Positions 5,236 to 43,838 of a stretch of DNA of 54,304 bases are shown here, in pieces. The notes below the pieces were generated by a model. It saw only the letters and a program-made list of their open reading frames with translations. It searched no databases and was not told the origin of the DNA. How positions within the stretch are numbered: position 1 is the first letter of the stretch; every line of letters begins with the position of its first letter. The DNA lies in assembly GCA_044356325.1 (NCBI GenBank), contig JBIKWJ010000001.1, positions 1 to 54,304 of the forward strand, in the 5' to 3' direction. Both the position numbers and the translations under genes were made by a program. The stretch comes from Minisyncoccia bacterium. Its GTDB lineage: Bacteria; Patescibacteriota; Minisyncoccia; SW-4-49-11.

Positions 5236-5258
5236 TCATCATTTAATACGATATCTCT

Positions 5259-8200: not shown

Positions 8201-8894
8201 CTTCGAAGCTCGTAATCCAAAAACTCAAGCTATGATGTCAACTGTAGCTGGAACCGTAGTAGATGTGATTGAAACAGCTGGAGAAATTAGAATTAAGATT
8301 AAAACCGATGATTCTAAAGAAGCTAAGAAGTCAAAAGCAGATATCAAGGAACTTGTGGCTGACCCCGTAGTAGATATTGTTCTTGTGAAAGTAGGAGATA
8401 CTGTTGAAGTAGGACAACCAATTACAGAAGGACATCTTGATCTTGAAAAACTCTATAAGCATGCAGGTATTGATACTTTAACTCGATATATTATTCAGCA
8501 AATTCTTGAAATTTATAATTCTCAAGGAGCTGGAATTGCTATTAAGCATGTTGAGATGATTGTAAGACAAATGACTTCACGATATATGGTAACTGAACCA
8601 GGAAAATCTAGTTATTTGAAGGGACAAACTATTACACGTGATCAACTTCTTGAATTCAATCGATTCACCGAGAATAAAGATGATTTGATACAAGTAGACC
8701 CTCTATTGCAAGGTATTACCAAAGTTGCTCTTAATACTGAAAGTTTCTTATCAGCTGCATCTTTCCAAAATACCACCAAGGTATTAATTGATGCTGCCTT
8801 ATTTGGAAAAGAAGATCATTTGAGAGGGCTGAAAGAAAATGTCATTATCGGAAGACTTATCCCAGCAGGAACTGGATTCGAAACCGAGCGATAA
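5259..8894 (+). CDS. rpoC: RNA polymerase beta' subunit
   Basis: [10 protein letters not shown]-terminal zinc ribbon, catalytic [24 protein letters not shown]. Confidence 0.99.
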
Positions 8895-8958
8895 TATTTT
8901 GCAGAATATGTTTTCTGATGTATACTAGTACTATACATAGGATTAAAATAAAAAGATA

Positions 8959-9714: not shown

Positions 9715-9761
9715 GCTTTGACAAAACTTGTGTTTTAGTATATAATTCTACAAGACTGTGC

Positions 9762-9834
9762 GCCGATATAGCTCAGTTGGTAGAGCGCACCCATGGTAAG
9801 GGTGAGGTCATCAGTTCAATCCTGATTATCGGCT
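9762..9834 (+). tRNA. tRNA-Thr(GGT)
   Basis: Acceptor GCCGATA/TATCGGC, anticodon arm CACCC-AT-GGT-AA-GGGTG. Confidence 0.95.
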
Positions 9835-9859
9835 CCCCAAACTATATAATGATATTACT

Positions 9860-10018
9860 ATGAGTCAAGAGAATTTAATCAAATTACAATGTACTGAAAC
9901 CGGTAAAATTGGTTATTATACGCGTAAGAATAAGAAGAAAAATACTGAAAAATTAGAGTTAAAGAAATTTAATTCTGATTTACGGCGACATACTCTTCAT
10001 CGAGAAATGAAGAAATAA
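9860..10018 (+). CDS. rpmG: 50S ribosomal protein L33 (absent from the ORF track)
   Basis: Manual translation MSQENLIKLQCTETGKIGYYTRKNKKKNTEKLELKKFNSDLRRHTLHREMKK. Confidence 0.95.
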   Translation: MSQENLIKLQCTETGKIGYYTRKNKKKNTEKLELKKFNSDLRRHTLHREMKK

Positions 10019-10028
10019 TACATCTAAT

Positions 10029-10054
10029 AAAAAGGAGCTAATTAGCTCCTTTTT
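10029..10054. terminator. Bidirectional intrinsic terminator between rpmG and fur
   Basis: AAAAAGGAGCTAATTAGCTCCTTTTT palindrome. Confidence 0.8.
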
Positions 10055-10472
10055 ATTTTTGGCAAGATTTGCATATACCCTGTATTTCAAAGGAATGAGA
10101 TATAGGCTTTCCAATATGAGAAATTGAGCTTAATAGGGGATCAATGAGGCATTCATCAATATCAATGATAGTATTACATTCAGAACAAGTAAAATGATGA
10201 TGATGAGGTAAAAATTGAGATGATAATTCATAGGAAGTGGCCTTTTCTCTATAAATAGCAACTATTAATTGAATGCTATGAAGTTTTTCTAGAATACGAT
10301 GAATTGTGGATAAGTCAATTGATTTATGATTATTTTTTAATTGAGTATAAATAGTTTTAGCTTCTATAGGAGTTTTGCTCTTAATGATAATATCAATAAC
10401 AGCTCTCATATGCTGAGTTAAGCGAATATGCGACTTTTGAATATAGGTATATATCTTGTCATTAATAGACAT
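10053..10472 (-). CDS. Fur/Zur family transcriptional repressor
   Basis: IDLSTIHR helix, HHHHFTCSEC and C-terminal CKSC. Confidence 0.92.
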   Translation of the reverse strand: MSINDKIYTYIQKSHIRLTQHMRAVIDIIIKSKTPIEAKTIYTQLKNNHKSIDLSTIHRILEKLHSIQLIVAIYREKATSYELSSQFLPHHHHFTCSECNTIIDIDECLIDPLLSSISHIGKPISHSFEIQGICKSCQK

Positions 10473-10485
10473 AGAATAAAATTAT

Positions 10486-10559
10486 TGGCAGGCACAGTAG
10501 GAATCGAACCTACGACGATGGTTTTGGAGACCATTGTTATACCATTTAACTATGCACCT
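10486..10559 (-). tRNA. tRNA-Trp(CCA)
   Basis: Minus strand: acceptor AGGTGCA/TGTGCCT, anticodon arm ATGGT-CT-CCA-AA-ACCAT, encoded CCA. Confidence 0.95.
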
Positions 10560-10604
10560 AAGTTATTACATTATACCTATAAACTCCTATTTTTGCAATA
10601 TACT

Positions 10605-10770
10605 GTCCTCCTTCGGAGAAGGTGGATAGAGCTTATTTTTGTATTTTATCCCCCCCACCCTATGGGCACCCCTCAAGAGGGGAATTTTTCGTACAGGACA
10701 TTGGTATATATTCCCCTCTTGAGGGGTGGTCACTCTCATACTTTTGTATGGGAGTGGGCGGGGTGGACAG
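10605..10770. repeat. CCCCTCAAGAGGGG-family repeat cluster
   Basis: Inverted pair CCCCTCAAGAGGGG / CCCCTCTTGAGGGG plus CTCTCATACTTTTGTATGGGAG hairpin as at 1690. Confidence 0.85.
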
Positions 10771-10937: not shown

Positions 10938-11846
10938 ATGAGATATAAATATATACTATTATCTATAACTTTACTTATAGTATCTTACTTTGTATTTACT
11001 ACAAATACTCTTGCCCAAGTAACTTATCAATCCTATACTAATTTCCCTGGAGCGGGTAGAATTAGTAATTTGTGTCAACTGATTACTGCTCTTTGGTATC
11101 TTGGATTTGCAACTCTCTTTACTGCGGTACTTGGTATGTTTATATATGGAGGATATATGTATGTAACAGCAGGAGTAAATGCAGGAAAAGTTAATCAAGC
11201 CAAAGAAATCTTTACTAATACCATCACTGGACTCATTATAGGACTTTCTATATTTATTATCATTAATGTTATTAATCCAGGATTATTACAAGGGAATTGT
11301 AGTATTTCCTCCCCTGGAACAGGAGGACAAACTCTGGGAGGACAATCAGGACAATCTGATATTCAACCAAAGCCAGGAGAAAGTGTTTTTCCGATAACTG
11401 GTGTTTATCAATGTCCTGGTCCACGAACAAGCTTTGGTAATGCAAGGGGTAGATTACACGCCGGAGTAGATCTTACTCCTCCCTTAAGTACAGTTTCAGA
11501 TGCTCAAGCCTTACAACTTCCTATATTAGCATTTAGAGACGGTACAGTTAATGAGGTAGGAGGTGGATTTGGAGTTGTTGGGATAGATCATGGCGGTGGA
11601 TTAGAAACCAGATATGTACATAATAGCAAAATATTTGTAACTAAAGGGCAAAAAGTACAAGCTGGACAAGAAATAGCTAAAATGGGTGATGCTGGTAGTC
11701 CAGGAGTGATCCATGCTCACTTTGAAGTATATCAAAACAATAATCCTGTAGATCCAGCACCTGTAATATTTGATTCTGGTAAAAATCCAGACCCATCAAA
11801 AGTTAAAACTACTGGTAGTCCAAAATGTATTGGACAAAATTCATAA
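10938..11846 (+). CDS. CPR-type (VirB2/TrbC-like) pilin domain fused to M23 peptidase
   Basis: IYGGYMYVTAG..AKEIFTNTITGLII..INP pilin signature; HAGVD, TRYVH and HAHFEV M23 motifs. Confidence 0.85.
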   Translation: MRYKYILLSITLLIVSYFVFTTNTLAQVTYQSYTNFPGAGRISNLCQLITALWYLGFATLFTAVLGMFIYGGYMYVTAGVNAGKVNQAKEIFTNTITGLIIGLSIFIIINVINPGLLQGNCSISSPGTGGQTLGGQSGQSDIQPKPGESVFPITGVYQCPGPRTSFGNARGRLHAGVDLTPPLSTVSDAQALQLPILAFRDGTVNEVGGGFGVVGIDHGGGLETRYVHNSKIFVTKGQKVQAGQEIAKMGDAGSPGVIHAHFEVYQNNNPVDPAPVIFDSGKNPDPSKVKTTGSPKCIGQNS

Positions 11847-30101: not shown

Positions 30102-33100
30102 TTATTGTGTTAATTCTTGAGCCAATAGTTCACTTTGCTCCAGAACTTTATCAGCTTCTATTCTTGCAAGATCAGGTGGATAACCATATCTCATGAGAAT
30201 TTTTTTGACCGTAAGACGGAGTTTAGCTCTGACATCTTCTCGTTTTTCCCAATCAACCGTAGCATTTTTGCGGATAATATCAACAATAACATGAATCAAC
30301 TCTTTCATTTTATGATCATCTAAAAATTTCGTAGAATCATTCTGAGCCAGTACACTATAAAAGGCATATTCTTCTGGAGTAAGTCCAATATCTTCCGCCT
30401 TTTTATCCTCCAATTTCATTGCCCGAGCAATTTCTGAAAGTTCCTGAATCACTTGAGCCGTATCAATTTGATTATTATGATACCTATTGATTACACTCTC
30501 AAGCATCTCAGAAAACTTTTTTCCTTGAGCCATATTTTTTCTTTTTCGTAATTTTACCTCATCATTCAAGAGCTTACGCAGAAGTTCAAAGGCAAGATTT
30601 TTTTGCTCCATATTTTTGACCTCAAGCAAAAATTCCTCTGACAAAATATCCAGTGTCGGAGTTTTCATCCCCGCAGCCTCGAACACATCCACTACTCCAT
30701 CACTCGCCAAAGCCTCCTCTACAATTTGTCTTACCGCCGTCTCTACCTGACTATCTGAAACACCCCCACTAGGAGTGAATTTATTAATACGAGCTTTAAT
30801 CGCTTGAAACAACGCAACTTCATCTCGTATTTGCTCAGCCTCAAAACTTGGAACCGCCATCGCAAATAACTTCGACAAAGCAGTCACTTCCGTCAAAAAT
30901 CTCTGCTTAAGTTTTTCATCATATAAAATAAAGTTTGTCGCCCCCAATAAAATATGTAATTTTTCACTACTCTCAGCCTGAAAATAATTTTTGTATTCAA
31001 AGCCATGGAACATTTGCTCCACAATCTCAAATTTTGTCTTCATACTCGCAATAACCTCAGCAATATCTAGAACCGCATCACCCTCACCACCACTTTGAAT
31101 ATACACACCCATCGCATTTCTCAGATCCTGACCAATACCAATATAATCCACAATCAATCCTCCTGGTTTATCCTTATATACCCGATTAACCCGAGCAATA
31201 GCCTGCATCAAATTAGCACCCTGCATCTTTTTATCAATATACATCGTATGCAAACACGGAACATCAAATCCCGTCAACCACATAGACTGAACAATCACCA
31301 TCTGAAGTGAATCCTGAGAATCCTTGAGCCTCAGAGCAAGCTTCTTTCTGTCCTCTTTATTCGTATGATGAGCTTGAAAGTCTTCAGGATCATCACTACT
31401 CGAAGTCATCACAATTTTAAGCTTCCCTTGCATCAATTCATCACTATGCCAATCAGGACGAAGAGCAATAATTTCTTGATATAACCAAACCGCAATTTGC
31501 CTTGTCATACATACCACCATAGCCTTCCCCTCAAAGGTTCTTTGCCTCGCCTCAAAATGCTCCACAATATCCTTAGCCAAATCCTTTAGTCTATCAGGAT
31601 GACCAACCACCGCATCAATTTGAGCATTTTTCTTTTTCGCCTTTTCCTTTTGCTCCTCAGTAGCACCAACAATTTCATCAATAGCATAATCAATTTTATT
31701 GACCAACTCCTTATTCAATTTAATTTTAACCAAACGAGACTCATAACTAATCGGCACCGTAGCCCCATCATCCACCGCCTGCTTAATATCATAAATATCA
31801 ATTTCATTCCCAAATACATTACGCGTTGACCTGTCCTCCTTCTCAATCGGAGTCCCCGTAAACCCAATAAAAGAAGCCCTCGGCAAAGCATCCCTCAAAT
31901 ATTTAGCATTCCCATATCGAATTTCAGACCCATCCACCGTTTCTACCTCTCGCCCCTTGAATCCATATTGACTACGATGAGCCTCATCCGCCACAACCAC
32001 AATATTCGAACGCTCAGATAAAGTTTCATACACATTCCCCTCACGAGGAGCAAATTTCTGAATAGTCGTAAAAATAATACCACCCCCCGCAACCTTGAGA
32101 AGCTCTTTCAAATGCTCACGACTTTCCGCCTGCACAGGAGTCTGTCTCAATAATTGCTTACAATTTCCAAAAGTCGTAAATAACTGATCATCAAGATCAT
32201 TCCTATCCGTCAAAATAACAATAGTCGGATTCTTCATCATCGGCTCCACCACAATTTGCCCCGTATAAAACACCATAGAAAGAGATTTTCCCGAACCCTG
32301 AGTATGCCAAATAACTCCAATTTTTCTATTACCCTCAGATTCATCAGTAGCCCTCAAGGTTTCCTTAACCGCTTTTTCCACTGCATAATATTGATGATAG
32401 GCTGCAATTTTCTTAATCTTCACCACCGATAATAACCCCGTTTTTTCATCCTTTTGCTCCTCTTGTTCAAAAACCGTATTATATCGAATCAATCGAAGTA
32501 ACACCTCAGGAACAAGCATTTTTTCAGCCATAATCTGCATTTCTGGCACAATACCATTCTCCTTTTTCTCAGGAGATTTCCAAGCCACAAATCGCTCAAA
32601 AGGAGCAGACACACTCGACATACGAGCATCAATTCCATCTGAGATAATACATAAGGCATTATAATAAAAAATACTCGGAACAGCTTTTTTATAATTCTGA
32701 ATTTGTGTAAAAGCCCTCTCCAAAGTCGCCTTTTCATCAGTAGCATTCTTCAACTCCACTACAACTAAAGGAAGCCCATTCACATAAATCACGACATCCA
32801 ATCGCTTCTCATTATTATGCTCTTTGATCACCAATTGATTCACCGCCCAAAAGCTATTATTTGAGACATTCTCCAAATCAAGAAGCTTAACATTGATACC
32901 CTTTGTAGCATCATCTTTGACATATTCAACCGTAATCCCATCAGTCAAATAAGTATGAAACTTTTCATTATTCGCCATCACATCAGAAGACCCAAGATTC
33001 ATAATATGTTGATACGCCTCATACCTTGCTGATTCAGGAATATCTGGATTCAATCTTTTGAGTGACTCCTTGAGATGATTTTCGAGTATGACACTATCAA

Positions 33101-33245
33101 ATCGTTCTCTTTGGGGATTATTAGAATACGGAGCCTGTCTGCCAGCCAGGCAGGCAATATCTGGACCATAGAAATACTCATAGCCTTGAGCTACAAGGAT
33201 ATCTATCAAGGTCTGTTCTATATGGAATTCGTTGAGGGTAGTCAT
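30102..33245 (-). CDS. hsdR: Type I restriction endonuclease subunit R
   Basis: NGLPLVVVELK, WHTQGSGKS, DEAHRSQY, QAIARVNR. Confidence 0.97.
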   Translation of the reverse strand: MTTLNEFHIEQTLIDILVAQGYEYFYGPDIACLAGRQAPYSNNPQRERFDSVILENHLKESLKRLNPDIPESARYEAYQHIMNLGSSDVMANNEKFHTYLTDGITVEYVKDDATKGINVKLLDLENVSNNSFWAVNQLVIKEHNNEKRLDVVIYVNGLPLVVVELKNATDEKATLERAFTQIQNYKKAVPSIFYYNALCIISDGIDARMSSVSAPFERFVAWKSPEKKENGIVPEMQIMAEKMLVPEVLLRLIRYNTVFEQEEQKDEKTGLLSVVKIKKIAAYHQYYAVEKAVKETLRATDESEGNRKIGVIWHTQGSGKSLSMVFYTGQIVVEPMMKNPTIVILTDRNDLDDQLFTTFGNCKQLLRQTPVQAESREHLKELLKVAGGGIIFTTIQKFAPREGNVYETLSERSNIVVVADEAHRSQYGFKGREVETVDGSEIRYGNAKYLRDALPRASFIGFTGTPIEKEDRSTRNVFGNEIDIYDIKQAVDDGATVPISYESRLVKIKLNKELVNKIDYAIDEIVGATEEQKEKAKKKNAQIDAVVGHPDRLKDLAKDIVEHFEARQRTFEGKAMVVCMTRQIAVWLYQEIIALRPDWHSDELMQGKLKIVMTSSSDDPEDFQAHHTNKEDRKKLALRLKDSQDSLQMVIVQSMWLTGFDVPCLHTMYIDKKMQGANLMQAIARVNRVYKDKPGGLIVDYIGIGQDLRNAMGVYIQSGGEGDAVLDIAEVIASMKTKFEIVEQMFHGFEYKNYFQAESSEKLHILLGATNFILYDEKLKQRFLTEVTALSKLFAMAVPSFEAEQIRDEVALFQAIKARINKFTPSGGVSDSQVETAVRQIVEEALASDGVVDVFEAAGMKTPTLDILSEEFLLEVKNMEQKNLAFELLRKLLNDEVKLRKRKNMAQGKKFSEMLESVINRYHNNQIDTAQVIQELSEIARAMKLEDKKAEDIGLTPEEYAFYSVLAQNDSTKFLDDHKMKELIHVIVDIIRKNATVDWEKREDVRAKLRLTVKKILMRYGYPPDLARIEADKVLEQSELLAQELTQ

Positions 33246-33256
33246 AAGTAGTGTAT

Positions 33257-34279
33257 CTAAGTAATATTATGATTCAAATTATACTTTTTAGCAAACTGTT
33301 CCCATAAATCATCAGTGATATTTAAAAACTCTTTTATATTTTCATCTCTTCTAAAAATTTTAACAATCTCTTTATTTGCAATAGTAGAATTATAAATACA
33401 ATAATTATCCATTGAACTGTGTAATATTTGTATAAAATGGTCTTTTGAAAAAAATAGATAATACTTTTGTAATTCTTTTATAAATTCCCCCATATCATTA
33501 TAAGACTTATCTTCATTTAAATATGCTAATACAATATTTAAATCTTGTGTTGTAACAATAGTACCTATTGTCTCATTCGCTACAGAGTCAAATATAATTA
33601 ACCTTTTCTGAGATTTTTCTTTAAAAGACAATACCCAATTATTCTCAATATTTAACCATTTTTCTTCATACTCAATACCCTCATATGTTTCTTGGATTTG
33701 TTGCAATATATAGTCACTAGGTATATTTAAACCTATATTTTTTTCAAATTCTTCAAAGTTTTCTATCACTTTAATATTTGGATGTTTTTGTAATGCTGTT
33801 TGAAATACCTTATCTTTTGTACATACAAAAACATACTTATCTGGTATAGTTTGTAAATATTCTAAAATTGTAAAATAGATATAAGTATCTTTAAACCCTT
33901 TTCCACCCGTTTGAAATGGTGGAAGTTCTTTAATTGCTAACTCTCTTATTTGATCCAATACTGAATGATTTTTTAAATGTATTATGGTATACTTTATATC
34001 TTCTTTGTTTTCTAATTCCGTAATATGTGCTTCATTATCAAAGTTTTCCGTATCTTCTTGATTGATATTTCTTAACCAATGAAAAGGATTCTTCAAAAAT
34101 AATCCCTTATTCTTTTCAAGCTCTTTTCTTTTTTGACATTTTAACTCTTCAATTACTAGGTCTGGTAAAATAATTTCTGCTATTTCTGCAAACTTTTGAA
34201 GCTCAACTCTACCCCCAAGAAAGGACTCGGGGTTAGTATCTTTAATAATATTAGTGTCAAAAATTACTTTTACTTTCAT
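33257..34279 (-). CDS. PIN-like domain protein (DUF4935-like)
   Basis: VIFDTN, VIEEL, PPF..KGFKDTYIY, TKD acidic pattern. Confidence 0.8.
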   Translation of the reverse strand: MKVKVIFDTNIIKDTNPESFLGGRVELQKFAEIAEIILPDLVIEELKCQKRKELEKNKGLFLKNPFHWLRNINQEDTENFDNEAHITELENKEDIKYTIIHLKNHSVLDQIRELAIKELPPFQTGGKGFKDTYIYFTILEYLQTIPDKYVFVCTKDKVFQTALQKHPNIKVIENFEEFEKNIGLNIPSDYILQQIQETYEGIEYEEKWLNIENNWVLSFKEKSQKRLIIFDSVANETIGTIVTTQDLNIVLAYLNEDKSYNDMGEFIKELQKYYLFFSKDHFIQILHSSMDNYCIYNSTIANKEIVKIFRRDENIKEFLNITDDLWEQFAKKYNLNHNIT

Positions 34280-35022
34280 CTATTTATCAAATCATAAGCT
34301 AGACTTGCTAAAACAATATAATGAATTGCTAAATTTTTATCTAATTCTTGTGCTGGGGTATGAGCTTTTTGATTTCTTAAATTCTGTATAGCCATGTGTA
34401 AATATTTCACTCCTTCAAAAAAATCTTTCTCAGCATCATTTTGTGGTTTATGTCCAAAAATAGTTTCAAGATTATCCTCCTTAAATGCTTCATGAGCTTT
34501 TTCTTTACCAGTAATCAATTTTAACTTCTCTCTAACTATTTTATATGATTCTTCCACAGCATTAAAATAATGTCCTGAATTGAGCAAAGTTTTAACATGA
34601 TCGAAGACCTCTTTTTGTAAAACAATTGAAATTGTATTATCTAAGAAGTTGGCTTCCGAAATTTTTTCAATACTAATGTCTTCTCCAAAAAGTTTTTGTC
34701 CAATTTCTTTTCCTTTTTTGATTAAGTTTTCATTAAAATCAGCTACATTCAAGTTTTGAATGAGAATCTGATTTTCAATATACTCAATAAGTTTTAAAAT
34801 ACTTTTTCCAACAATCCTATCATCAGCAACAGCCCAAAATCCACGAATACGATTTGCTTTTGAGCCACTTGCGTAGTTGTATTTTTTATCATAAATATTT
34901 ATCCCAACATCATCTATAAAAAATTCACCCATAGTACGATCAGAAAAATCCAACACATACCCACCACCCATCTGGAATAATTTTTCTAGTAGTTGTTTCT
35001 CAATAGTTGTTAAATTTGCCAT
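34276..35022 (-). CDS. TIGR02391-like protein with Abi-associated N-terminal domain
   Basis: MGGGYVLDFSDRT..SGSKANR N-terminus; YFNAVEESYK and LRNQKAH C-terminus. Confidence 0.75.
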   Translation of the reverse strand: MANLTTIEKQLLEKLFQMGGGYVLDFSDRTMGEFFIDDVGINIYDKKYNYASGSKANRIRGFWAVADDRIVGKSILKLIEYIENQILIQNLNVADFNENLIKKGKEIGQKLFGEDISIEKISEANFLDNTISIVLQKEVFDHVKTLLNSGHYFNAVEESYKIVREKLKLITGKEKAHEAFKEDNLETIFGHKPQNDAEKDFFEGVKYLHMAIQNLRNQKAHTPAQELDKNLAIHYIVLASLAYDLINR

Positions 35023-35031
35023 AAAATTGTT

Positions 35032-36357
35032 CTATTCAAATCCATTCACCCTCACCGCTCCACTCATCAATTTCGGTAACAACTCATCACGACTACGAGC
35101 GAGAGATTGAATTTCATGTAAATTATCCAAAATTTTTGTGAAAATTGAATTGGTAGTATTATGAAAATTTTCCAATACTTCTTGATTTGGTAGCATAATT
35201 TCTATATTTGAAAATGTAGAAGTGTTGATGTTTAATGTTGCAGAGCCACCACTACCAATAGCTAATAAATCACTTTTCATATTTGTTAGTGCAAAATACA
35301 AGTATTCAAGGTATTTTCCATCATTTGGAACAATAGAATTTATCTGCTGATTTGTTTGAGAATCTTTGCTTGTAATTGTAACTAAACCAACTGTTGCAAT
35401 ACAACTCACACAAATTGCATTTTTTGGAATGAATTTATTTTTTTGTGTATTTGCTCCAAGCTCTGTTAAAGAATCTTCTGTTTTTACAATAAAAACTTCT
35501 CCGTGCATATCGGGAATTTTTATAAACGGAATTTCACCTCCAAAATATTCCTTATTTTCTTTTGATGGTGTTTTTCCACAAACAATTTGTCCAACTTCCC
35601 CCAACTTCCCAACTCTCCACCCTTCTGGTAAATCACCTGCCTGCGCCGAGTCTTCGGCAAGCAGGTCATCCACTCCATATTTCCCACCTGCCTGCCGACT
35701 AGGCAGGAACCATTCTTTAAATATGGTCTGCCCCATCTCTTCCAATGTTTTATTTTGCTCTCTTAATAGCTCAATCTTATCATCAAAGCTACTTAATACT
35801 GAGGCGATGGCTTTTTGTTCTGGAAGAGGAGGGAGAAGAAAAGAATAATTTCTTAATTGAGCCAATCCAACATTTTTAATCGTGCTTCCATTTGCATTTT
35901 TTGAAATATCATATTGAAACCTATTTTCAAACATTAAATAATAAACAAAATCAACACTAACATCATTCTTTATATTAAAATAAGCAGCACTTTTTCCTAA
36001 AATACATTTTTCATTCCTATATTTTGCTAAATTTCCAATAGTTCCATTAATTGATAGTAAGACTGTTCTTTCATTTAGATCTTTTTTATACTTATCGAAT
36101 TCTATTTGATCAATTTTTTTAGTGTCTTGTTTAATTTCAATTTTACCATTTACTATATTATTTCCATTGATAAAAAAATATTCTCCATCTTCTGAATATT
36201 TAGGAGTTCCATGTAATCCATCTCCGATTTTCTCACAAACCTCCCCCAAAGTCGTCTCTACCCAATCTGTGGGCGAATAATCCACCCCGTCCTGCTTTGC
36301 AGTCCACCCCTCAAGAGGGGAATCTTTTGTTACCGTCTGTGAGGTGTTATCAGCCAT
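35032..36357 (-). CDS. hsdS: Type I R-M specificity subunit
   Basis: Two TRDs, LPPLPEQKAIA, LPEGW, RDELLPKLMSG; start placed at MADNT just after the rhuM stop. Confidence 0.95.
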   Translation of the reverse strand: MADNTSQTVTKDSPLEGWTAKQDGVDYSPTDWVETTLGEVCEKIGDGLHGTPKYSEDGEYFFINGNNIVNGKIEIKQDTKKIDQIEFDKYKKDLNERTVLLSINGTIGNLAKYRNEKCILGKSAAYFNIKNDVSVDFVYYLMFENRFQYDISKNANGSTIKNVGLAQLRNYSFLLPPLPEQKAIASVLSSFDDKIELLREQNKTLEEMGQTIFKEWFLPSRQAGGKYGVDDLLAEDSAQAGDLPEGWRVGKLGEVGQIVCGKTPSKENKEYFGGEIPFIKIPDMHGEVFIVKTEDSLTELGANTQKNKFIPKNAICVSCIATVGLVTITSKDSQTNQQINSIVPNDGKYLEYLYFALTNMKSDLLAIGSGGSATLNINTSTFSNIEIMLPNQEVLENFHNTTNSIFTKILDNLHEIQSLARSRDELLPKLMSGAVRVNGFE

Positions 36358-36358
36358 A

Positions 36359-37363
36359 TTATTTCTTGCCTTGTAATTTTTTGACCAATTCTTTTTCAAA
36401 GTCTGAGTGGATTTTTTGGGTTTTGTTAAACTCTTTGTATTCGGATAATGCCTTTTTTTGTGCCTGCTCTTGGGAAATTTTGCCTTTACCATCTAGAATT
36501 TTGAACTCATTAAAGCTCAAGAATTTGATTACACTATTTGCAAAACTTGCCATATCAAATGTAGTTTGATTCTCGATAATATTTTCTATATAGTCAAAAA
36601 ATGCCGATACAGTTCGCTCCAGTTTTTTGATTTCTTCCTGGGAAAGATAATTCTTAGCAATTTTTACATCTGATTGAAGTATTCTGCCAGATGGGGAATT
36701 TCTCCATGTTGTCAGTCCCATATTTTCCTTATCTTTATCTGCTTTGGAATAGACAATTTCCGCTGCGGTTTGTCCTGTTATCGCATAGTGAAACAGGTTT
36801 TGAACAGTTGCATAAAACTCTTTTGCTTCTGGAGATTTAGGATTATAATCAGAACTACATTCTGCAAATATATCGGTTATTTGTAAATAGATTCTTCTTT
36901 CACTTGCTCGAATTGATCGTACTCTCTCTAATAATTCTTTGAAGTAATCTTTACTAAAGACCTGTTCACCTTGCTTTAGCCTATCATCATCCAGTACAAA
37001 TCCTTTGATGATAAAATCTTTTAATACACTGGTAGCCCAAATACGAAATTGTGTTGCTCTTGCTGAATTAACTCGATATCCAACAGAGATAATAGCATCA
37101 AGATTATAAAATTTTGTTTTATATTTTTTCCCATCGCTGGCAGTATGTTCCAAAATGGAACTAACTGAATTTTCGTTTAATTCTCCATCCGTAAAAATAT
37201 TTCCTAAGTGTTTTGTAATTGCTGGTCTTTGTACTCCAAAAAGCTCTGCCATTCTTTCTTGTGTCAACCAAAGATTTTCATTATGCAAAAAAACATCTAA
37301 ATGCACGTCACCGTCATCAGATTGGTAAAGAATGAAATTTGACTGTTGTTTCAAATCTTTCAT
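36359..37363 (-). CDS. RhuM family protein
   Basis: YNLDAIISVGYRVNS, ATQFRIWAT, IRASERR. Confidence 0.93.
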   Translation of the reverse strand: MKDLKQQSNFILYQSDDGDVHLDVFLHNENLWLTQERMAELFGVQRPAITKHLGNIFTDGELNENSVSSILEHTASDGKKYKTKFYNLDAIISVGYRVNSARATQFRIWATSVLKDFIIKGFVLDDDRLKQGEQVFSKDYFKELLERVRSIRASERRIYLQITDIFAECSSDYNPKSPEAKEFYATVQNLFHYAITGQTAAEIVYSKADKDKENMGLTTWRNSPSGRILQSDVKIAKNYLSQEEIKKLERTVSAFFDYIENIIENQTTFDMASFANSVIKFLSFNEFKILDGKGKISQEQAQKKALSEYKEFNKTQKIHSDFEKELVKKLQGKK

Positions 37364-37365
37364 AT

Positions 37366-38880
37366 TTATTCTAAATCAAATCCAATTTTAGCAAGTTGCT
37401 TTTTGATTTCTGCATTCATTTTCTCTTCTTTGGCGAATTGTTCGGCAAGAGTAGTAGTGAGTTTATGCATTTTATCTTCAAATGGTATTCCATCATCTTC
37501 TGCATCTTTAATCCCTACATAGCGACCAGGTGTAAGAACAAAACCATGTTTCTCTACTTCTTCTCTTTGTGCTGACTTACAAAAGCCTTTTATATCCTCG
37601 TATTGTTCAGGATTTTTTCGCCAATTATGATAGGTGTTGGCAATAGTGTCTATATCTTCTTCAGTAAATTCTCTATGAACTCGGTCTTTGAGGAATCCCA
37701 TATCTGATGCATCGATGAAGAGAATTTCTTTATTGCGTGTTGTTCTTTCTCTTCTCAATATCCAAATACAGGCGGGTATTCCGGTATTATAAAAAAGTTG
37801 CTTTGGGAGTGCAACGATACATTCCACCAAATCATATTGAATCAGGGTTTTGCGAATTTCTCCTTCTCCTGAAGTATTGGAGCTAAGGCTTCCATTAGCA
37901 AGTACAGTTGCCATTACTCCGTGAGGTGCGAGGTGATATAACATATGCTCCATCCATCCAAAATTAGCATTTCCTGCTGGTGGTTTTCCATATTTCCATC
38001 TTGCATCATCTTGAAGTATATCTACTCCCCAATCTGATTGATTAAATGGAGGGTTTGCGAGGATATAATCGGCTTTGAGGTCAGGATGTGCATCTTTCAA
38101 GAAACTTCCTTCGGTATTCCAAGCTACAAATTGTGAGTTTATATTACGGATTGCAAGATTCATTTTGGAGAGCTTCCAAGTTGTTTGATTGGATTCTTGT
38201 CCATAAATAGTGATATCTTTGATATTTCCTGAGTGTTCTTGTACAAATTTTTCACTCATCACAAACATTCCCCCAGAACCACAGGCGGGATCATATACTC
38301 TTCCTTTATACGGCTCTATCATCTCTACCATCAATTTGACAATAGATTTTGGAGTATAGAATTGTCCTCCCTTTTTCCCTTCAGCATTAGCAAATTCTCC
38401 AAGGAAATATTCATATACTCTTCCAAACAAATCTTTGGATTTAGTATTTTCTACTTGTAATTCTGTATTAGAAATAAGGTCAATCAATTGTCCGAGTGAG
38501 GCTTTATCTAAATTAGGCTTCCCAAATACTTTTGGGAGTACATTTTTGAGCTCGGGATTTTCTTTCTCGATTGCCTCCATAGCATTATCTAACTCTTGTC
38601 CAATAGTTGGGAGTTTTGCTTTGGCTTGGAGATTTTTCCATCTTGCCTGTTCGGGCACAAAGAAAATATTCTCAGAAATATATTCATCTCTATCCTCTGG
38701 ATCACTAAATTCATCCTGAGCTAATTTGTCATAAAGTTCTTGAAAAGATTCAGAAATATATTTAAGAAAAATAAGTCCAAGAGCTACATTCTTATATTCT
38801 GCCGCATCAATATTTTTACGAAGTTTATCTGCTGCTTTGAATAATTGTGCTTCAAAATGGAGATTTTGACCTTGTGCCAT
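37366..38880 (-). CDS. hsdM: Type I R-M methyltransferase subunit
   Basis: [26 protein letters not shown]. Confidence 0.97.
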
Positions 38881-38992
38881 AAAAAAAATATATATTATTT
38901 ACCCCTATTATACCATATCCCCCACCTTTTGAGGAGTGATTATCTCATAAAAAATATATATTACACAGAATTATCTATGTAATGTGTCGTGA

Positions 38993-39595
38993 TTATTGTA
39001 TATCTAGTAAATCTTTTAACTTTTTACCTTTATATTGCCAATAGGCTGCTCCGTGATAGGCTCCACTTTTATTGCTATTACCTTTTTGTTGATATATCTT
39101 TCGGGTTAATGGGGATAATTTGAAAATTTGTCCCCCATATTCTACATCTCTCTCACCTACGACTTTTGCTGTGATATCTTTATCTGCTATGAATATTATT
39201 TCCTCTCCATCTTGTATGCCTTTTCTATAAAAACTAAATTTTGCACTTTGCTCTCTGGATTTTGAAATTTCATCGAATTCTTTTTCTTTATCTATATCTT
39301 TTGGATATATTACTTTTCCTTCAAAGGATAGGAGTAATTGTTTTACCAAATCATAGTCTAGCGCGAATAACTCACTGTCTCCTACTCTGTGTTTGGTGAA
39401 AATTTCTTTGAGTAGATTTTCTTTATATGTATAGTCTTCTAGTTCTATTGCAAAGAATCTCTTTAATCCTGAGACATTGTAGTATCCATTTGATTCTAGA
39501 TTTCTCATCCTTTCTTGATAATTTTGACTGCCTGTTTGTCCTATTTTTATTAGTCCATCGACTACTGTTGTCATTATATAGACTACTCCTTTCAT
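38993..39595 (-). CDS. GIY-YIG (T5orf172-like) nuclease domain protein
   Basis: GVVYIM..IKIGQT..ERM..ELF; C-terminal GAAYWQYKG domain. Confidence 0.8.
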   Translation of the reverse strand: MKGVVYIMTTVVDGLIKIGQTGSQNYQERMRNLESNGYYNVSGLKRFFAIELEDYTYKENLLKEIFTKHRVGDSELFALDYDLVKQLLLSFEGKVIYPKDIDKEKEFDEISKSREQSAKFSFYRKGIQDGEEIIFIADKDITAKVVGERDVEYGGQIFKLSPLTRKIYQQKGNSNKSGAYHGAAYWQYKGKKLKDLLDIQ

Positions 39596-39755
39596 AGATT
39601 ATGTGAATTTAATGATTGTTTGTATTATAGCATGTTTTTAGGTTGAATTACTAGCCGAATACATCCTCCTCCACCTTTCAGGAAACCCTCCTAAACAACG
39701 TATAGGAGGGACTTAAAGCTCCTCTCACAAGGGAGGACAGTTTATGGAGTAAAAT

Positions 39756-39783
39756 AAAAACCGATGCGCGGGGCATCGGTTTG
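39756..39783 (-). terminator. Intrinsic terminator of the NblA-like cassette
   Basis: Minus strand AAACCGATGC-CCCGC-GCATCGGTTTTT. Confidence 0.8.
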
Positions 39784-39800
39784 AACATTGTAGTGACAGA

Positions 39801-40034
39801 CTATGAACTATCTTGAGAGAATGAATCAGGGTATAAACTTGCATCAGATCGAGCAGGGGCACCGAACTGTTGACGCATTACCCATTGAGTAGCTGCTTTC
39901 TGAGCTTGCCAAGCCTGAGCTAATTGCTTACATAGTCCACGTAAGACTTGAGGATCTCCAGTGGCGTCAATCGCTCGAGTCATTCGCTCAAGTTCAAACT
40001 TCTGAAAATCTGACAATTGCATAGAATCATTCAT
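39801..40034 (-). CDS. NblA-like small helical protein (cassette 5)
   Basis: MNDSMQLSDFQKFELERM..LCKQLAQAW..ATQWVMRQQFG; LSxxQxF motif and two-helix pattern; promoter TTGACA-N17-TAATCT at 40088-40060. Confidence 0.6.
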   Translation of the reverse strand: MNDSMQLSDFQKFELERMTRAIDATGDPQVLRGLCKQLAQAWQAQKAATQWVMRQQFGAPARSDASLYPDSFSQDSS

Positions 40035-40161
40035 GACTACACATGCAAAGAGCATATTTAGATTACCCAAATTATCTTATTCTGTCAATATATAGTAGAA
40101 GGTTTTGATTTGACAATATGGGAATACTTATACTGATACATGAAATTTGTTCTTTTTGTCT

Positions 40162-40270
40162 ATGAACAAACTCCGTCCTGAATTAGCAAGATCTCAAATT
40201 ATTGAGCTCATTCGTAGAACTGTAATATATAGAGTACAACAAGACTTGGAAAAGTCAAATAACAAACGCA
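40162..40270 (+). pseudogene. Possible truncated small ORF interrupted by a repeat
   Basis: MNKLRPELARSQIIELIRR.. runs into the composite repeat at about 40270. Confidence 0.3.
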
Positions 40271-40356
40271 CCCCTCAATTTATCTCCATCCCTACGGGAG
40301 GTAAACCCGTAGGTGGAGAGGGGAATTTAAAAAGCCACCTTTTGGGGTGGCTTGGG
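40270..40356. repeat. Composite repeat with nested insert and terminator-like hairpin
   Basis: Closely matches about 42441-42530; nested part also at about 43687-43741. Confidence 0.85.
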
Positions 40357-40439
40357 GGGAATTATATTTTTATGTTATATGTATTTGATATTCTTGGAAA
40401 AATTATATATAATTACCAAGGTTATCTCCAAATTATCCC

Positions 40440-40724
40440 ATGGATCCACAAATTGCTAACAAACACCGGTCTGCTGTGTTGTTGATAAGAGAAATTATTA
40501 TTTGTGTTAGAAAAAATCAGAAAACAATAAGTAAAGCTCAGTTGATAGATCTTTTAGCAGAGCACCTAGAGACAGAAGAATATTTAAATTACACACAAAA
40601 TATTCTTCTAGTAAATTGTAGAGACAATGATATCCTCACAATAGATGGACAAACTAATAATGTGAGATTTCCAAAACGAAGAGATGGAACCGGGAATGTC
40701 ATAGAGTATCATTATATAAAATAA
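40440..40724 (+). CDS. Hypothetical protein (cassette 6)
   Basis: Promoter GTTAT-N6-TTGATA-N17-TATAAT at 40374-40413; terminator GAGCTCGGG..CTCGAGCTTTTT at about 40744-40772. Confidence 0.7.
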   Translation: MDPQIANKHRSAVLLIREIIICVRKNQKTISKAQLIDLLAEHLETEEYLNYTQNILLVNCRDNDILTIDGQTNNVRFPKRRDGTGNVIEYHYIK

Positions 40725-40823
40725 AGTATCATTTTGAGTAAATGAGCTCGGGTATAAAACTCGAGCTTTTTTATAATCAAAAAAGCCACTCTCTGGGAGG
40801 GTGGCTTGGGAGAAGAAAGGGTC

Positions 40824-41141
40824 TCAGATTTGCTCTTTGGGAACAAGTCCAAGCCTCTGAACCTCGGATTTGAGATGACAGACTTCGGGTCGAGGCTCAT
40901 CCTTCGGCCAAGTGTCTCCGAGGGAGACAAAGCCTGCCCAGGGTTGTTCCACATACTCCCCACAATTAATCGGTCGAGGGTTGGCTCCATCCCTGATAGC
41001 CGTCCGCATGGCCTCCAAACGGGATTCGGCTCGAGTGGCACGCTCAGAGAGCGGGCATATATACAGGTATAAAGTTAGAGCGGATGTCGCCATCACAGCT
41101 CCTACTATGGTGTAGAGAAACACAGGCGTACTAATGGTCAT
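40824..41141 (-). CDS. Membrane-anchored Cys-containing hypothetical protein (cassette 7)
   Basis: Visibly GC-richer ORF with N-terminal TM; TTGACA promoter at 41211; terminator at about 40779-40807; alternative GTG start at 41150. Confidence 0.7.
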   Translation of the reverse strand: MTISTPVFLYTIVGAVMATSALTLYLYICPLSERATRAESRLEAMRTAIRDGANPRPINCGEYVEQPWAGFVSLGDTWPKDEPRPEVCHLKSEVQRLGLVPKEQI

Positions 41142-41351
41142 GATGTACACCCCCCTTAGGGGGAGAGATAAATGGTCGTGTTATATATAGCATATTTTTA
41201 CATTTTGTCAATAGTAGTGGTCAACTTTTAATACAAAAAAGAGCAATCCACCCTCCCCTTCGGGTACTCCCTCCTAAGGGAGACAGAAGTTCAAAGGAGA
41301 GGGTAAAACAAATACAGGCGACTGGGAGGTCGCCCCTACGAAGAAATATAA

Positions 41352-42212
41352 TCACTCTAAATCTTTTACTCTATTCAATAAATCTTGTACTGAACTTGTG
41401 TCTAATAGACTGAAGGCGAAGAGTTTTTTGCCTAAATCTTTGAGCGAGGCGCCTAGATGATAGATTTCTTTTTGGTCTATTATTAGGAATCTATCATGGC
41501 TTTTGTTGAATTTCTTTAGCTTAAAGTTTCCATATTGCTGATTGACTTTCTGTATATCTAGCTCTAATTCCTTACTTATTGGATGGGTTAATATAAGGGC
41601 TTTTACTTTTGGGTTCTTTTTGGCTAGATGTATTAGGGTGCTCTCGTCTATATAATTGTCTATAAGGATTATATGTGTCTTGGCTTTGCGAATTATCTTT
41701 GAGAATAATTCATAGGCATCGAATACTTGTCCTTCGAAGAATATGCCTTGGGTGGGGATGGTATTGGTATGTATTTGCAAGTCTATTTGATTTACTTTTT
41801 CACTCAAAGATTGAATATTATCTTCTATTCTGTTTATCCGATTATTCAGTGCATAGCCTTTGAGTAAATAGTCTCGTAAAATATTGGTTGCCCAGATGCG
41901 AAATTGTGTACCTTGTTTTGATTTTACTCGGTACCCTACTGATATTATAACATCTAGATTGTAATACTCCACTTGGCGCTCAACCTTTCTGCCTCCTTCA
42001 TTTTGAACTGTCGCAAATTTTGCGACAGTTGCTATATTATCTAGTTCTCCTTCCGAAAAAACATTATTGATGTGTTTACCAAGAGTTTTTACATCTCTAC
42101 CAAAAAGCAAAGCCATTTGCTGTCTGTTTAACCAAACAGTTTCGTGTTTAAGCATTACTTCTATATGCTCATCTAAATCATCTGGTCTATATAAAATAAT
42201 TTCATTTTTCAT
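41352..42212 (-). CDS. RhuM-like domain protein with C-terminal PLD-like nuclease domain
   Basis: YNLDVIISVGYRV, FRIWAT; LIDNYID and HDRFLIID..GASLKDLG. Confidence 0.85.
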   Translation of the reverse strand: MKNEIILYRPDDLDEHIEVMLKHETVWLNRQQMALLFGRDVKTLGKHINNVFSEGELDNIATVAKFATVQNEGGRKVERQVEYYNLDVIISVGYRVKSKQGTQFRIWATNILRDYLLKGYALNNRINRIEDNIQSLSEKVNQIDLQIHTNTIPTQGIFFEGQVFDAYELFSKIIRKAKTHIILIDNYIDESTLIHLAKKNPKVKALILTHPISKELELDIQKVNQQYGNFKLKKFNKSHDRFLIIDQKEIYHLGASLKDLGKKLFAFSLLDTSSVQDLLNRVKDLE

Positions 42213-42349: not shown

Positions 42350-42530
42350 ATCCACCTCCGGCACTTCGTGACACCTCCTCCGAAGGAGGACAAGGAGGCA
42401 AGTTGCAAAACACTTCCACCCCGTCCAGCGAAGCTGTCCACCCCTCAATTTATCTCCACCCCTACGGGAGGTAAACCCGTAGGGAGAGAGGGGAATTTAA
42501 AAAGACCACCCTCTGGGAGAGTGGCTTGGG
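42350..42530. repeat. Palindromic repeat cluster with nested insert
   Basis: CCACCTCC..CCTCCGAAGGAGG unit and interrupted CCCCTCAA/GAGGGG unit. Confidence 0.8.
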
Positions 42531-43596: not shown

Positions 43597-43741
43597 GTCC
43601 CCCTTCGCCTGCCTACCGCAGGCAGGCAAAGGAGGACAGAAACTCAGGTTGCAAAATACTCCACCCCGTCAGGCGAAGCCTGCCACCCCTCAATTTATCT
43701 CCACCCCTACGGGAGATAAACCCGTAGGGAGAGAGGGGAAT
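43597..43741. repeat. Palindromic repeat cluster with both nested element types
   Basis: GCCTGCCTACCGCAGGCAGGC and CTACGGG..CCCGTAG inserts inside hairpin loops. Confidence 0.8.
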
Positions 43742-43838
43742 TTTTAGCACTATCCCAAAATAGCAATAGTAATGGTTATTGTAAATTAACAATAAAAGAA
43801 AAACCCCACCTTGACGACGGGGGTTTTGATAGAAGAGT

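Follow-up and report, generated by a model that had tools for sequence, protein, structure and literature searches.

An NblA-type gene of picocyanobacterial affinity in a genus of lake Paceibacteria and its possible use inside a cyanobacterial host

One genus of lake Paceibacteria carries a gene for an NblA-type protein, very probably captured horizontally as a functional gene and since kept under purifying selection. The gene lies in a window of 54,304 nucleotides (positions 1 to 54,304 of contig JBIKWJ010000001.1), which is the whole stretch of DNA that was analyzed. NblA normally triggers a cell's digestion of its own light-harvesting antenna. The best explanation as a whole, capture of the gene followed by use of its product in a cyanobacterial host, is put forward tentatively, and as a complete account falls somewhat short of an even chance.

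The NblA-type gene and its putative expression signals

The NblA-type ORF is leftwards-oriented, with an ATG at 40034 and a stop codon at 39803–39801, and encodes the 77 amino acids (plus stop) quoted in the initial annotation, with the same N-terminus (MNDSMQLSDFQKFELERM); an alternative TTG start at 40070 would yield an 89-residue version. On sequence grounds it is far beyond a chance reading frame: 363 database proteins match it at E≤0.01, and the two nearest share 88% and 79% of their residues with it. The gene and its putative signals are organized as follows.

39758–39782, minus strand: intrinsic-terminator-like hairpin with a T run; 10 bp stem, starting 19 nt past the ORF stop
39801–40034, minus strand: NblA-type ORF, 77 aa; residues 1–58 form a conserved core and the tail is variable
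40060–40088, minus strand: promoter-like TTGACA–17–TAATCT, conserved in three species (alignment A3); putative in function
39756–40097, minus strand: promoter-like site, ORF and terminator-like hairpin together, a mini-cassette of mobile appearance (blastn)

The gene has a promoter-like site and a terminator-like hairpin of its own, in line with the initial annotation; both are conserved in two sister species, and are consensus matches rather than proof of transcription. The −35 hexamer TTGACA (40088–40083) is invariant in alignment A3 and is separated by a 17-nt spacer from TAATCT (40065–40060). A promoter scan picks another, overlapping site (5′-TTGTCA—18 bp—TATATT; 40116–40087; 10/12 matches). 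The terminator stem is preserved in G532 and G534 with both arms changed (alignment A3, by eye). Segment 39756–40097 is the sole part in common with the G532 and G534 copies, which occupy other loci; its blastn identity is 74% to L032/L155 and 77% to L156, and it is present as a single copy in the source genome (G000). RNA run X24 contributes one 236-nt contig, on 39416–39637 in the neighboring T5orf172 gene and none on the NblA-type gene, and is uninformative on the expression of the latter. Inspection by eye reveals no signal peptide, as had been noted at the outset.

Locus integrity and genome context

The assembly comprises 818,776 bp in 15 contigs and is 99.5% complete. Its description as non-photosynthetic and CPR-like holds, with no match to phycobilisome proteins (PF00502) anywhere in the assembly and with a same-genus relative that is a Candidatus Paceibacterota bacterium.

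The initial annotation had named a chimeric assembly as grounds for abandoning its reading. That a cyanobacterial or phage fragment was joined to a CPR contig during assembly or binning is highly improbable, although the bin does contain two small, foreign-looking contigs of high GC content (C3, 0.59; C10, 0.66). The gene is situated 39.8 kb inside a 252,952-bp contig of 0.35 GC, and three other lake-water runs have contigs that span 39309–40195, 39681–41284 and 39802–40976 with 0 differences. Since these bridge both junctions, the locus is not an assembly chimera. Two further species of the genus have homologous cassettes, and the gene has a GC content of 0.44, not the 0.69 of Cyanobium loci.

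The neighboring genes include a type I restriction-modification system (30102–38880), a T5orf172 gene (38993–39595) and a RhuM gene (41352–42212), and this variable context would also suit a passenger gene or one with a part in defence. A GC-rich patch at 40800–41250 shows no apparent cyanobacterial affinity; it yields three chance-level Rfam rows only at E≤1, has fold z-scores of −1.25 and 0.01, and contains a 108-aa ORF with 8 homologues.

A divergent picocyanobacterial family

The best matches had been expected in cyanobacteria or cyanophages, and the named ones are indeed picocyanobacterial, with the family also present on phage contigs. Among the 120 listed of the 363 homologues, all ten rows that name their organism belong to Cyanobium, Synechococcaceae or Cyanobacteriota, and cyanobacterial titles account for 73 of the best 80 of 232 tblastn-confirmed genome loci. 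Identity to Cyanobium and Synechococcus proteins, chromosomal Cyanobium copies included, is 60–75%, with E values down to 1e-25. The family has 301 cluster representatives at E≤0.001; alignment A2 contains 134 representatives, with 17 of the 150 listed excluded as partial matches or much longer proteins.

Alignment A1 has 29 sequences, the CPR copies among them, and 28 invariant columns, each of whose residues the window protein retains (M1, L7, Q11, F13, L15, E16, R17, M18, R20, A21, I22, D23, Q29, L31, R32, L34, K36, Q37, L38, A41, W42, Q45, A47, A48, W51, M53, R54 and Q55). The C-terminal tails differ, with CPR copies ending in QDSS and Cyanobium copies in D-[IV]-L.

The family includes a published NblA. 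Both qPCR primers of the host nblA2 gene (Syncc8109_1607, PMC12695635) fall within one ORF of L185. This ORF matches the family HMM at 60.7 bits and aligns with the window protein without gaps, at 38% identity (pairwise E 3e-11). Its product, NblA2 of Synechococcus sp. WH8109, is the best structural match to Nostoc NblA according to its authors (PMC12695635). The same source describes picocyanobacterial NblAs as highly divergent, missed by general profiles and present in several copies, and assigns them by remote homology and predicted structure, its experiments having dealt with viral NblA (PMC12695635). Each of four Cyanobium/Synechococcus genomes likewise contains 2–3 family members and gives no match to the Pfam NblA profile (PF04485). 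The CPR protein thus shares its sequence family and ~58-residue core with picocyanobacterial NblA-type proteins, but its carrier is non-photosynthetic and has neither a phycobilisome nor a Clp system. The CPR gene also differs from the picocyanobacterial copies in its GC content (0.44 rather than ~0.69), its replaced C-terminal tail, and its own sigma-70-like promoter in AT-rich surroundings.

Relation to canonical NblA

Canonical NblA is described as a helix-loop-helix protein of ~60 residues whose dimer is a four-helix bundle and which, as an adaptor, brings phycobiliproteins to ClpC (PMC7966870). The window protein shares with the canonical proteins, of which structures are solved from Nostoc/Anabaena PCC 7120 (1ojh), Thermosynechococcus vulcanus and Synechococcus elongatus, the N-terminal L-S-x-x-Q-x-F motif, a predicted helix hairpin and a predicted symmetric dimer. 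The LSxxQxF motif and the C-terminal Q-x-G named in the initial annotation are both present, the former reading L-S-D-F-Q-K-F in the window protein and L-[ST]-L-E-Q-x-F in 46 collected canonical NblA proteins. The window protein differs from the canonical proteins in falling below the Pfam threshold, in an identity of ~12% by hhalign, in having no Foldseek match to a solved NblA, and in being encoded by a carrier without phycobilisomes and ClpC–ClpP.

General profiles do not recover the protein. The Pfam NblA profile (PF04485; gathering threshold 25 bits) gives no row for it at E≤10 and no match across the whole CPR genome, and an NCBIfam search of the ORF gives no NblA row. Relatives are matched weakly (7/29 and 11/134 family members; best E 0.002), and Acyl-CoA_dh_C matches 14/134 members as weakly as PF04485. 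A profile–profile comparison by hhalign of the 134 representatives in A2 with the 46 canonical proteins is far stronger (94.5%; score 42.9; P 7.8e-8), with an alignment of 57 columns covering both helices. In 200 column shuffles the maximum score is 17.5 (mean 10.3, sd 2.2), and a reversed profile scores 8.7. The N-terminal motif contributes much of the hhalign score, and a low-diversity comparison of 120 close homologues with 26 Nostocales-type NblA proteins gives 69.7% over just 18 columns.

Structure prediction gives a similar picture. The AF2 monomer has predicted helices at residues 9–25 and 28–57 in a helix-loop-helix arrangement (mean pLDDT 71). A homodimer model has an ipSAE of 0.47, as against 0.00 for the best of three controls, with pLDDT of at least 72, at least 86% of contacts agreeing between runs, and a symmetric interface along residues 31–50. 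The mark for a dimer is reached by 20/30 solved one-chain pairs and 1/23 solved single chains, and this pass, being a prediction, could stem from a resemblance to NblA dimers already solved. Foldseek returns 0 PDB chains at E≤10, which is a weak negative because short hairpins score poorly; against BFVD the best match is a viral protein (C7F495; E 0.014, TM 0.55), with all others at E>1. A PDB sequence-profile search returns nothing with A1 and four chance-level rows with A2, the fourth being NblA 1ojh at E 0.79. The nearest Atlas cluster that has a Pfam family is NblA (22% of members; score 0.76), which is taken as a lead only.

Short helical hairpins readily resemble each other, and the sub-threshold Pfam scores, the empty Foldseek search of the PDB and the chance-level rank of 1ojh could all be expected if the likeness were convergent and the picocyanobacterial proteins formed an unrelated hairpin family, uninformative on antenna degradation. 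We regard this as improbable, given an hhalign score far beyond all 200 shuffles, the agreement in length and helix boundaries, the predicted symmetric dimer, the reported structural likeness of the family member WH8109 NblA2 to Nostoc NblA, and the Atlas lead. Membership of the ORF in a branch of the NblA family that is divergent and picocyanobacterial, with remote homology to canonical NblA, is well supported by these comparisons of sequences. The relation to NblA proposed in the initial annotation therefore stands through the hhalign result and the presence of WH8109 nblA2 in the family, though not as a Pfam match or a Foldseek match in the PDB.

Distribution, insertion site and transfer

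The family is present in 3/12 species of one Paceibacteria genus (2/11 besides the source). At wider ranks it was found in 0/5 in other genera of the taxonomic family, 0/44 in the class and 0/400 other genomes in a sample of the phylum. Among the CPR genomes searched its occurrence is limited to that genus, with none in ~445 others. Comparison with relatives delimits an insertion around the gene.

39640–40316, no strand: genome-specific segment, 677 bp; homology of relatives ends at 39639 and restarts at 40317
40269–40334, no strand: short repeat at the border of the insert, dispersed through the genome in ~8 copies

Matches to G533, G536, G529, G534 and G528 end at query positions 10638–10641, and they restart at 11318 (G533, G529) or at 11368–11373 (G528, G531, G526). 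Depth spikes and contig breaks occur at the 40269–40334 repeat in lake metagenomes.

The GC content of the gene (0.44) lies between those of the CPR genome (0.35) and of Cyanobium loci (0.69), and the cassette has very probably drifted towards the low GC of its recipient after capture. Over 58 codons, the window copy and those of two sister species have dN/dS ratios of 0.11, 0.30 and 0.08 at dS values of 0.8–2.1, from which long retention under constraint follows.

A recent passenger, consisting of picocyanobacterial or phage DNA in a variable, repeat-flanked spot and being lost without having had a role, would fit the presence of the gene in only three species, its different loci in these with dispersed repeats alongside, and the state of one of the two G532 copies, which is a contig-end fragment. 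It is nonetheless an unlikely account, since the low dN/dS at high dS, the intact reading frames, the conserved promoter and terminator, and the amelioration of GC from about 0.69 to 0.44 all argue against it. Capture with retention remains the very probable reading given above.

The initial annotation spoke of a captured cyanobacterial gene. Its relatives are picocyanobacterial and the insert is absent from relatives of the carrier, and to this extent the claim stands; the choice between a picocyanobacterium and a phage as donor does not follow from the data. In the free tree, 6/7 'CPR' rows are nested within a Cyanobium clade (P0002, P0003 and P0006 being counted as CPR rows solely from a shared QDSS tail). 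AU tests reject neither a single clade of all seven CPR rows (p 0.568) nor a separation of the 44 cyanobacterial rows from the CPR and viral rows (p-AU 0.689; constrained tree 6.94 lnL better), and a nested position of the CPR copies within Cyanobium is not claimed. The tree has 62 columns, and for this reason does not resolve the donor, which could be a Cyanobium-type picocyanobacterium or one of its phages. The capture could also stem from environmental DNA, without physical association.

Site of action and the cyanophage parallel

The canonical partners of NblA are missing from the carrier. Besides phycobilisome proteins, ClpP (PF00574) and the Clp N-domain (PF02861) have no match in the 99.5%-complete CPR genome, so canonical bridging of phycobiliproteins to ClpC–ClpP cannot run in the CPR cell and the canonical partners exist only in a cyanobacterium. 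The most likely use would be that of cyanophage nblA, with action inside a cyanobacterial host cell, where the protein would trigger breakdown of the antenna and perhaps of other proteins; this would free amino acids for an auxotrophic epibiont. Such a host-directed use, derived from the absence of partners and the phage analogy, is possible, and we favor it tentatively while thinking it rather more apt to prove wrong than right.

Cyanophages provide a parallel. Viral NblA is reported to direct degradation of the phycobilisome and other host proteins, and the NblAs of T7-like phages are reported as closer to canonical NblA than to the picocyanobacterial type (PMC12695635). Cyanophages such as S-TIP37 and Ma-LMM01 carry a host-type nblA as an auxiliary gene (PMC12695635, PMC11477984), as the CPR carrier does, but the latter is a cellular, epibiont-type bacterium and not a virus; the protein would therefore need to cross two cell envelopes. 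Only ATPases of the type IV pilus type were found in the CPR genome, and VirB4-like AAA_10 matches fall below the cut-off, so no type IV secretion system is claimed.

The NblA-type family itself occurs in viral sequences. Terminase and portal genes adjoin a family member in L091, and primase, ribonucleotide reductase and sigma factor genes are near one in L089. The photosystem genes psbA/psbD (PF00124) are absent from all five viral records carrying the family, four of which are at least 96% complete, and for this reason these records are not termed cyanophages. A tblastn search of the window protein against 50,697 GenBank phage records gives no match.

The protein might instead work inside the CPR cell, as an adaptor or regulator of a protease or ATPase with a new partner, or as part of a defence or mobile-element island, and its role would then be unrelated to any host antenna. 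The restriction-modification, T5orf172 and RhuM context, the lack of a signal peptide and of a known delivery system, and the distinct QDSS tails are all in keeping with this, and purifying selection proves function and not its site of action. On the other side, the 28 columns that stay invariant with the CPR copies included suggest that surfaces used in cyanobacteria look retained, the CPR genome offers no ClpP or Clp N-domain partner, and no defence-family or regulator profile scores above threshold. A role inside the CPR cell is unlikely on balance.

If the host-directed reading is correct, the gene would play for a cellular parasite the part that nblA plays for cyanophages, and the concept of auxiliary metabolic genes would reach beyond phages to such parasites. 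CPR bacteria would then join cyanophages in lowering picocyanobacterial light harvesting in lakes, and this CPR lineage would have its first host assignment and first candidate host-directed effector, a concrete one with an assayable activity. Very few Patescibacteria have a known host or known effectors. A full-text literature search found nothing relevant that joins nblA with Patescibacteria, and a broader CPR/Paceibacteria search had none with nblA among the matches listed.

A second cyanobacterial gene and the putative host

Carriage of the NblA-type gene is a hint of a life at the expense of picocyanobacteria. In the literature examined, Gracilibacteria are the only freshwater CPR bacteria so far seen on picocyanobacteria, having been found attached to them by CARD-FISH (PMC9166423).

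The genus also carries an aldehyde-deformylating oxygenase (PF11266, 6e-113), a second cyanobacterial gene, and both this and the NblA-type gene appear to be under constraint in a genus with genomes of 0.6–0.9 Mb. The aldehyde-deformylating oxygenase family has very few known members outside the cyanobacteria. Together the two genes make a concrete and testable hypothesis of a picocyanobacterial host. In its fullest form, the lake Paceibacteria genus would be an epibiotic parasite of freshwater picocyanobacteria, delivering an NblA-type effector that makes the host ClpC–ClpP digest its phycobilisomes and so feeds an amino-acid-auxotrophic epibiont, with the oxygenase as a second trophy of the association; with so many steps combined, this scenario is doubtful.

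A SOUL-domain protein encoded beside the aldehyde-deformylating oxygenase gene was not found in the five picocyanobacterial genomes searched with that query. The oxygenase gene is present in 8/12 species of the genus and 0/49 outside it, and the CPR protein is 70–72% identical to those of Cyanobium/Synechococcus and 59–64% identical to those of five other cyanobacteria.

The NblA-type gene and its putative signals

The minus-strand translation of the 77-aa open reading frame agrees with the protein sequence quoted in the initial annotation. The gene and its putative signals are organized as follows:

40116-40087, minus strand: promoter-like TTGTCA-18-TATATT upstream of the ORF (promoter scan)
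40088-40083 and 40065-40060, minus strand: TTGACA and TAATCT separated by a 17-nt spacer (alignment with two sister-species copies)
40034 (ATG) to 39803-39801 (stop), minus strand: NblA-type ORF, 77 aa
39782-39758, minus strand: hairpin with a 10-bp stem containing GC, then a T run, 19 bases past the stop (terminator scan)

In the alignment of sister-species copies, TTGACA-17-TAATCT is better conserved than the scan-reported TTGTCA-18-TATATT. An in-frame ATG at 40055, upstream of 40034, is lost in one sister species, and 40034 is therefore taken as the start. Local GC over the gene is 0.45-0.47 versus about 0.30-0.33 in the adjoining DNA, and no signal peptide is seen by eye in the protein.

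Membership of the NblA family

The NblA match proposed in the initial annotation gains little from direct searches. Pfam and NCBIfam profiles give no NblA row for the ORF at E<=10 (the best row, ARM_5, scores 16 bits, short of its cut-off of 27), Pfam NblA makes weak contact with 7/29 and 11/134 members of the two family alignments (best E 0.002), the family profile reaches the solved Nostoc NblA (1ojh) at E 0.79 only, and a Foldseek search of the PDB with the predicted model finds no chain. Profile-profile comparison gives a much clearer NblA signal and, with the predicted fold, supports the match. When the alignment of 134 family representatives is compared by hhalign with 46 canonical NblA sequences (from the 39 of 121 cyanobacterial genomes having PF04485), the probability is 94.5% (P 7.8e-8, score 42.9) over 57 columns covering both helices; the maximum over 200 column shuffles of the NblA alignment is 17.5 (mean 10.3, sd 2.2), and reversal of that alignment gives 8.7. 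The AF2 monomer is a helix-loop-helix (helices 9-25 and 28-57, pLDDT 71), and the predicted homodimer has an ipSAE of 0.47 versus 0.00 for controls, with contact agreement of at least 86% and partner pLDDT of at least 72. The dimer mark is attained by 20 of 30 proteins whose solved structures are one-chain pairs and by 1 of 23 with a single-chain structure; the pass may stem from resemblance to solved NblA dimers, and indicates likeness rather than binding.

A large protein collection contains 363 homologues at E<=0.01, the two closest being 88% and 79% identical and the next ones about 89 aa long with 60-73% identity; 10 of the 120 rows listed are named by organism, and all ten names are Cyanobium, Synechococcaceae or Cyanobacteriota MAGs. 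When each species was represented by a single genome, 232 family loci were confirmed. The best 80 of these include 73 titled as cyanobacteria (Cyanobium, freshwater Synechococcus, Aphanothece and a contig labelled Microcystis), four titled as other phyla on roughly 0.7-GC contigs from one MAG series, two titled 'uncultured bacterium', and one Paceibacterota MAG. A full HMM search yields 301 cluster representatives at E<=0.001, and the family is thus large and diverse; 28 columns are invariant in the 29-sequence alignment, every one of them intact in the CPR copies.

Picocyanobacterial NblAs are described in PMC12695635 (Nature 2025) as too divergent for general profiles to detect, as present in several copies per genome, and as retaining the dimeric NblA architecture in predicted structures; the experiments described there concern a viral NblA, the picocyanobacterial proteins being assigned via remote homology and structure prediction. 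The forward qPCR primer given there for 'host nblA2 (Syncc8109_1607)' has one exact match in 401 Cyanobium-family genomes, and both nblA2 primers fall within one 52-aa ORF that reaches 60.7 bits with the family HMM and is 38% identical, gap-free, to the window protein. These two matches place the window ORF in a family already published as picocyanobacterial NblA. Consistent with this, four Cyanobium/Synechococcus genomes, in which PF04485 has no match at E<=1, have 2-3 family members each.

Transfer into the CPR genus

NblA homology together with horizontal transfer is highly probable. A contig of 252,952 bp begins with the 54-kb window and belongs to an assembly of 818,776 bp (15 contigs, 99.5% complete), in which a whole-genome profile search finds no phycobilisome protein (PF00502) and no Pfam NblA match. 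One relative from the same genus bears the title 'Candidatus Paceibacterota bacterium', and with the lack of PF00502 this sustains, as far as tested, the earlier description of the genome as CPR-like and non-photosynthetic. Two of the 11 other species in the genus have the family, G532 (a full copy plus another at a contig end) and G534; the family profile finds none in five genomes of other genera in the taxonomic family, 44 in the class, or 400 others in a phylum sample.

By DNA comparison, homology with five genus relatives ends at 39639 and restarts at 40317 in G533 and G529 and about 50 bases later in G528, G531, and G526; in G533, the nearest relative, hsdM and T5orf172 are present with nothing between the homology ends. 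Only 39756-40097, the promoter-ORF-terminator unit, is common to G532 and G534, where it lies at other loci with 74-77% nucleotide identity. The unit has one copy in the present genome, with short dispersed repeats at its borders:

39686-39724, 40269-40334 and 41245-41350; also 42439-42504 and 43684-43743: short GC-rich dispersed repeats, 40-66 nt, about 4-10 genome copies

These repeats are numerous across the genus, metagenome contigs end and depth spikes at them, and they may be MITE- or REP-like.

A check for chimeric assembly, raised in the initial annotation, found none: contigs from three other lake-water runs span 39309-40195, 39681-41284, and 39802-40976 with zero differences and bridge both junctions. 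The gene GC of 0.44 rules out a stray cyanobacterial fragment (0.69 in Cyanobium loci) and, being between that value and the genome's 0.35, identifies an old resident, present long enough for GC drift. Over a 58-codon core, comparison of the copies from the three species gives dN/dS values of 0.11, 0.30, and 0.08 (dS 0.8-2.1), and in the alignment, by eye, both arms of the terminator stem have changed with pairing kept. These comparisons indicate that the gene is under selection that retains it; that it is a passenger being lost is quite unlikely. The second G532 copy (L157:2-100, at the start of contig C150) is truncated and ends D-I-L as in Cyanobium proteins, whereas other CPR copies end QDSS.

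Pairwise identity peaks with chromosomal copies in Cyanobium (as much as 72-75%), with viral copies at 50-64%. The expected picocyanobacterial or cyanophage affinity is borne out in part: the named best matches are picocyanobacterial and phages carry the family; GenBank phages give zero matches to the window protein and psbA is found in none of five viral records tested that carry the family. The family is encoded at 23 IMG/VR loci, and at least two carriers are real phages: a complete 110-kb phage genome (L091; region 6372-10573) with terminase large subunit and portal genes directly downstream of the family gene, and a genome of 279 kb, complete and bearing terminal repeats (L089; region 470-10456), in which primase, ribonucleotide reductase, and sigma factor genes surround it. 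In the free tree six of seven 'CPR' rows, a label that for P0002, P0003, and P0006 rests solely on the shared tail, form one clade within the Cyanobium group, and the G534 copy groups with viral rows. AU tests on 62 columns reject neither a single CPR clade (p 0.568) nor a separation of all cyanobacterial rows from CPR and viral rows (p 0.689), so the claim is limited to transfer from a picocyanobacterium-plus-phage gene pool, possibly once.

Possible role of the protein

NblA is described in PMC7966870 as a ClpC adaptor that binds phycobiliproteins and passes them to ClpC-ClpP. The CPR protein would act within a cyanobacterial cell, as phages use nblA, which is the simplest course because the only known partners of this constrained adaptor occur in cyanobacteria; ClpP and the Clp N-domain have zero matches in the CPR genome. 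Such a host-directed mechanism is possible, if tentative. Searches of the genome identified five type IV pilus-type ATPases and no secretion system beyond these, VirB4-like matches being sub-threshold. The NblA-type proteins, and the fact that phages carry them, are already known; among the papers listed by full-text searches on nblA and Patescibacteria or CPR, an NblA-type gene under selection in a CPR bacterium appears unpublished. Should action on a host hold, which is somewhat less than an even prospect, this would be a parasite-borne nblA in a cellular, not viral, carrier.

A new role within the CPR cell itself is rather unlikely, although the gene's neighbours are a type I R-M system and T5orf172 and RhuM genes, in an island parts of which are common to only some genus members:

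30102-42212: variable island
30102-33245: hsdR
35032-36492: hsdS
37366-38880: hsdM
38993-39595: T5orf172-domain gene
40824-41150, minus strand: 108-aa ORF with an N-terminal hydrophobic stretch, in a GC patch of 0.54-0.56
41352-42212: RhuM-family gene

The 108-aa ORF has eight homologues only, none named, and its region is poorly conserved across the genus, with no Rfam match or fold signal. One 236-nt contig from an aquaculture metatranscriptome (X24) matches 39416-39637, in the 5' portion of T5orf172, at two differences, and may be DNA carry-over.

Possible association with picocyanobacteria

A genome-wide GC-outlier scan identified, outside the window, a 267-aa ORF of GC 0.53 (C12:102922-103725; L189:2923-3726, minus strand) encoding a full-length aldehyde-deformylating oxygenase (PF11266, E 6e-113). 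This family is known almost exclusively from cyanobacteria, and PF11266 is above cut-off in one of 14 control genomes, Synechococcus elongatus. The CPR protein is 70-72% identical to those of four Cyanobium/Synechococcus genomes and one marine Synechococcus, versus 59-64% for five other cyanobacteria; 8 of the genus's 12 species have it, compared with 0 of 49 genomes from outside the genus. Its gene resembles the NblA cassette in being a lone GC-rich one between AT-rich flanks (0.30-0.35). Its neighbours (L189:149-865, 1323-1955, and 2073-2828) encode SOUL haem-binding, NAD(P)H-binding (NAD_binding_10), and DUF4336 domains; a search with the SOUL protein as query does not find it in five picocyanobacterial genomes.

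Two separate picocyanobacterial captures within a single genus are consistent with a lasting association, although both genes may have come by uptake of abundant environmental DNA. Other freshwater CPR, belonging to the Gracilibacteria, are described in PMC9166423 as attached to picocyanobacteria by CARD-FISH. The window stretch is represented by at least half of sampled words in nine lake-water metagenome runs, four of which are possible sources.

Two foreign-looking small contigs are present in the bin, C3 (6,518 bp, GC 0.59; L204) and C10 (3,777 bp, GC 0.66; L205). C3 encodes ThyX and thymidylate kinase, among GenBank phages it best matches thymidylate synthase genes from Synechococcus phages (about 68%), and it is possibly a co-binned phage fragment. 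Elsewhere outside the window, a 299-aa WD40-repeat protein (C1:139262-140161; L190) of GC 0.63 is encoded in a 0.35-GC contig beside a 316-aa ORF of GC 0.59 (C1:137671-138621; L190), and these two genes are further candidates for foreign origin.
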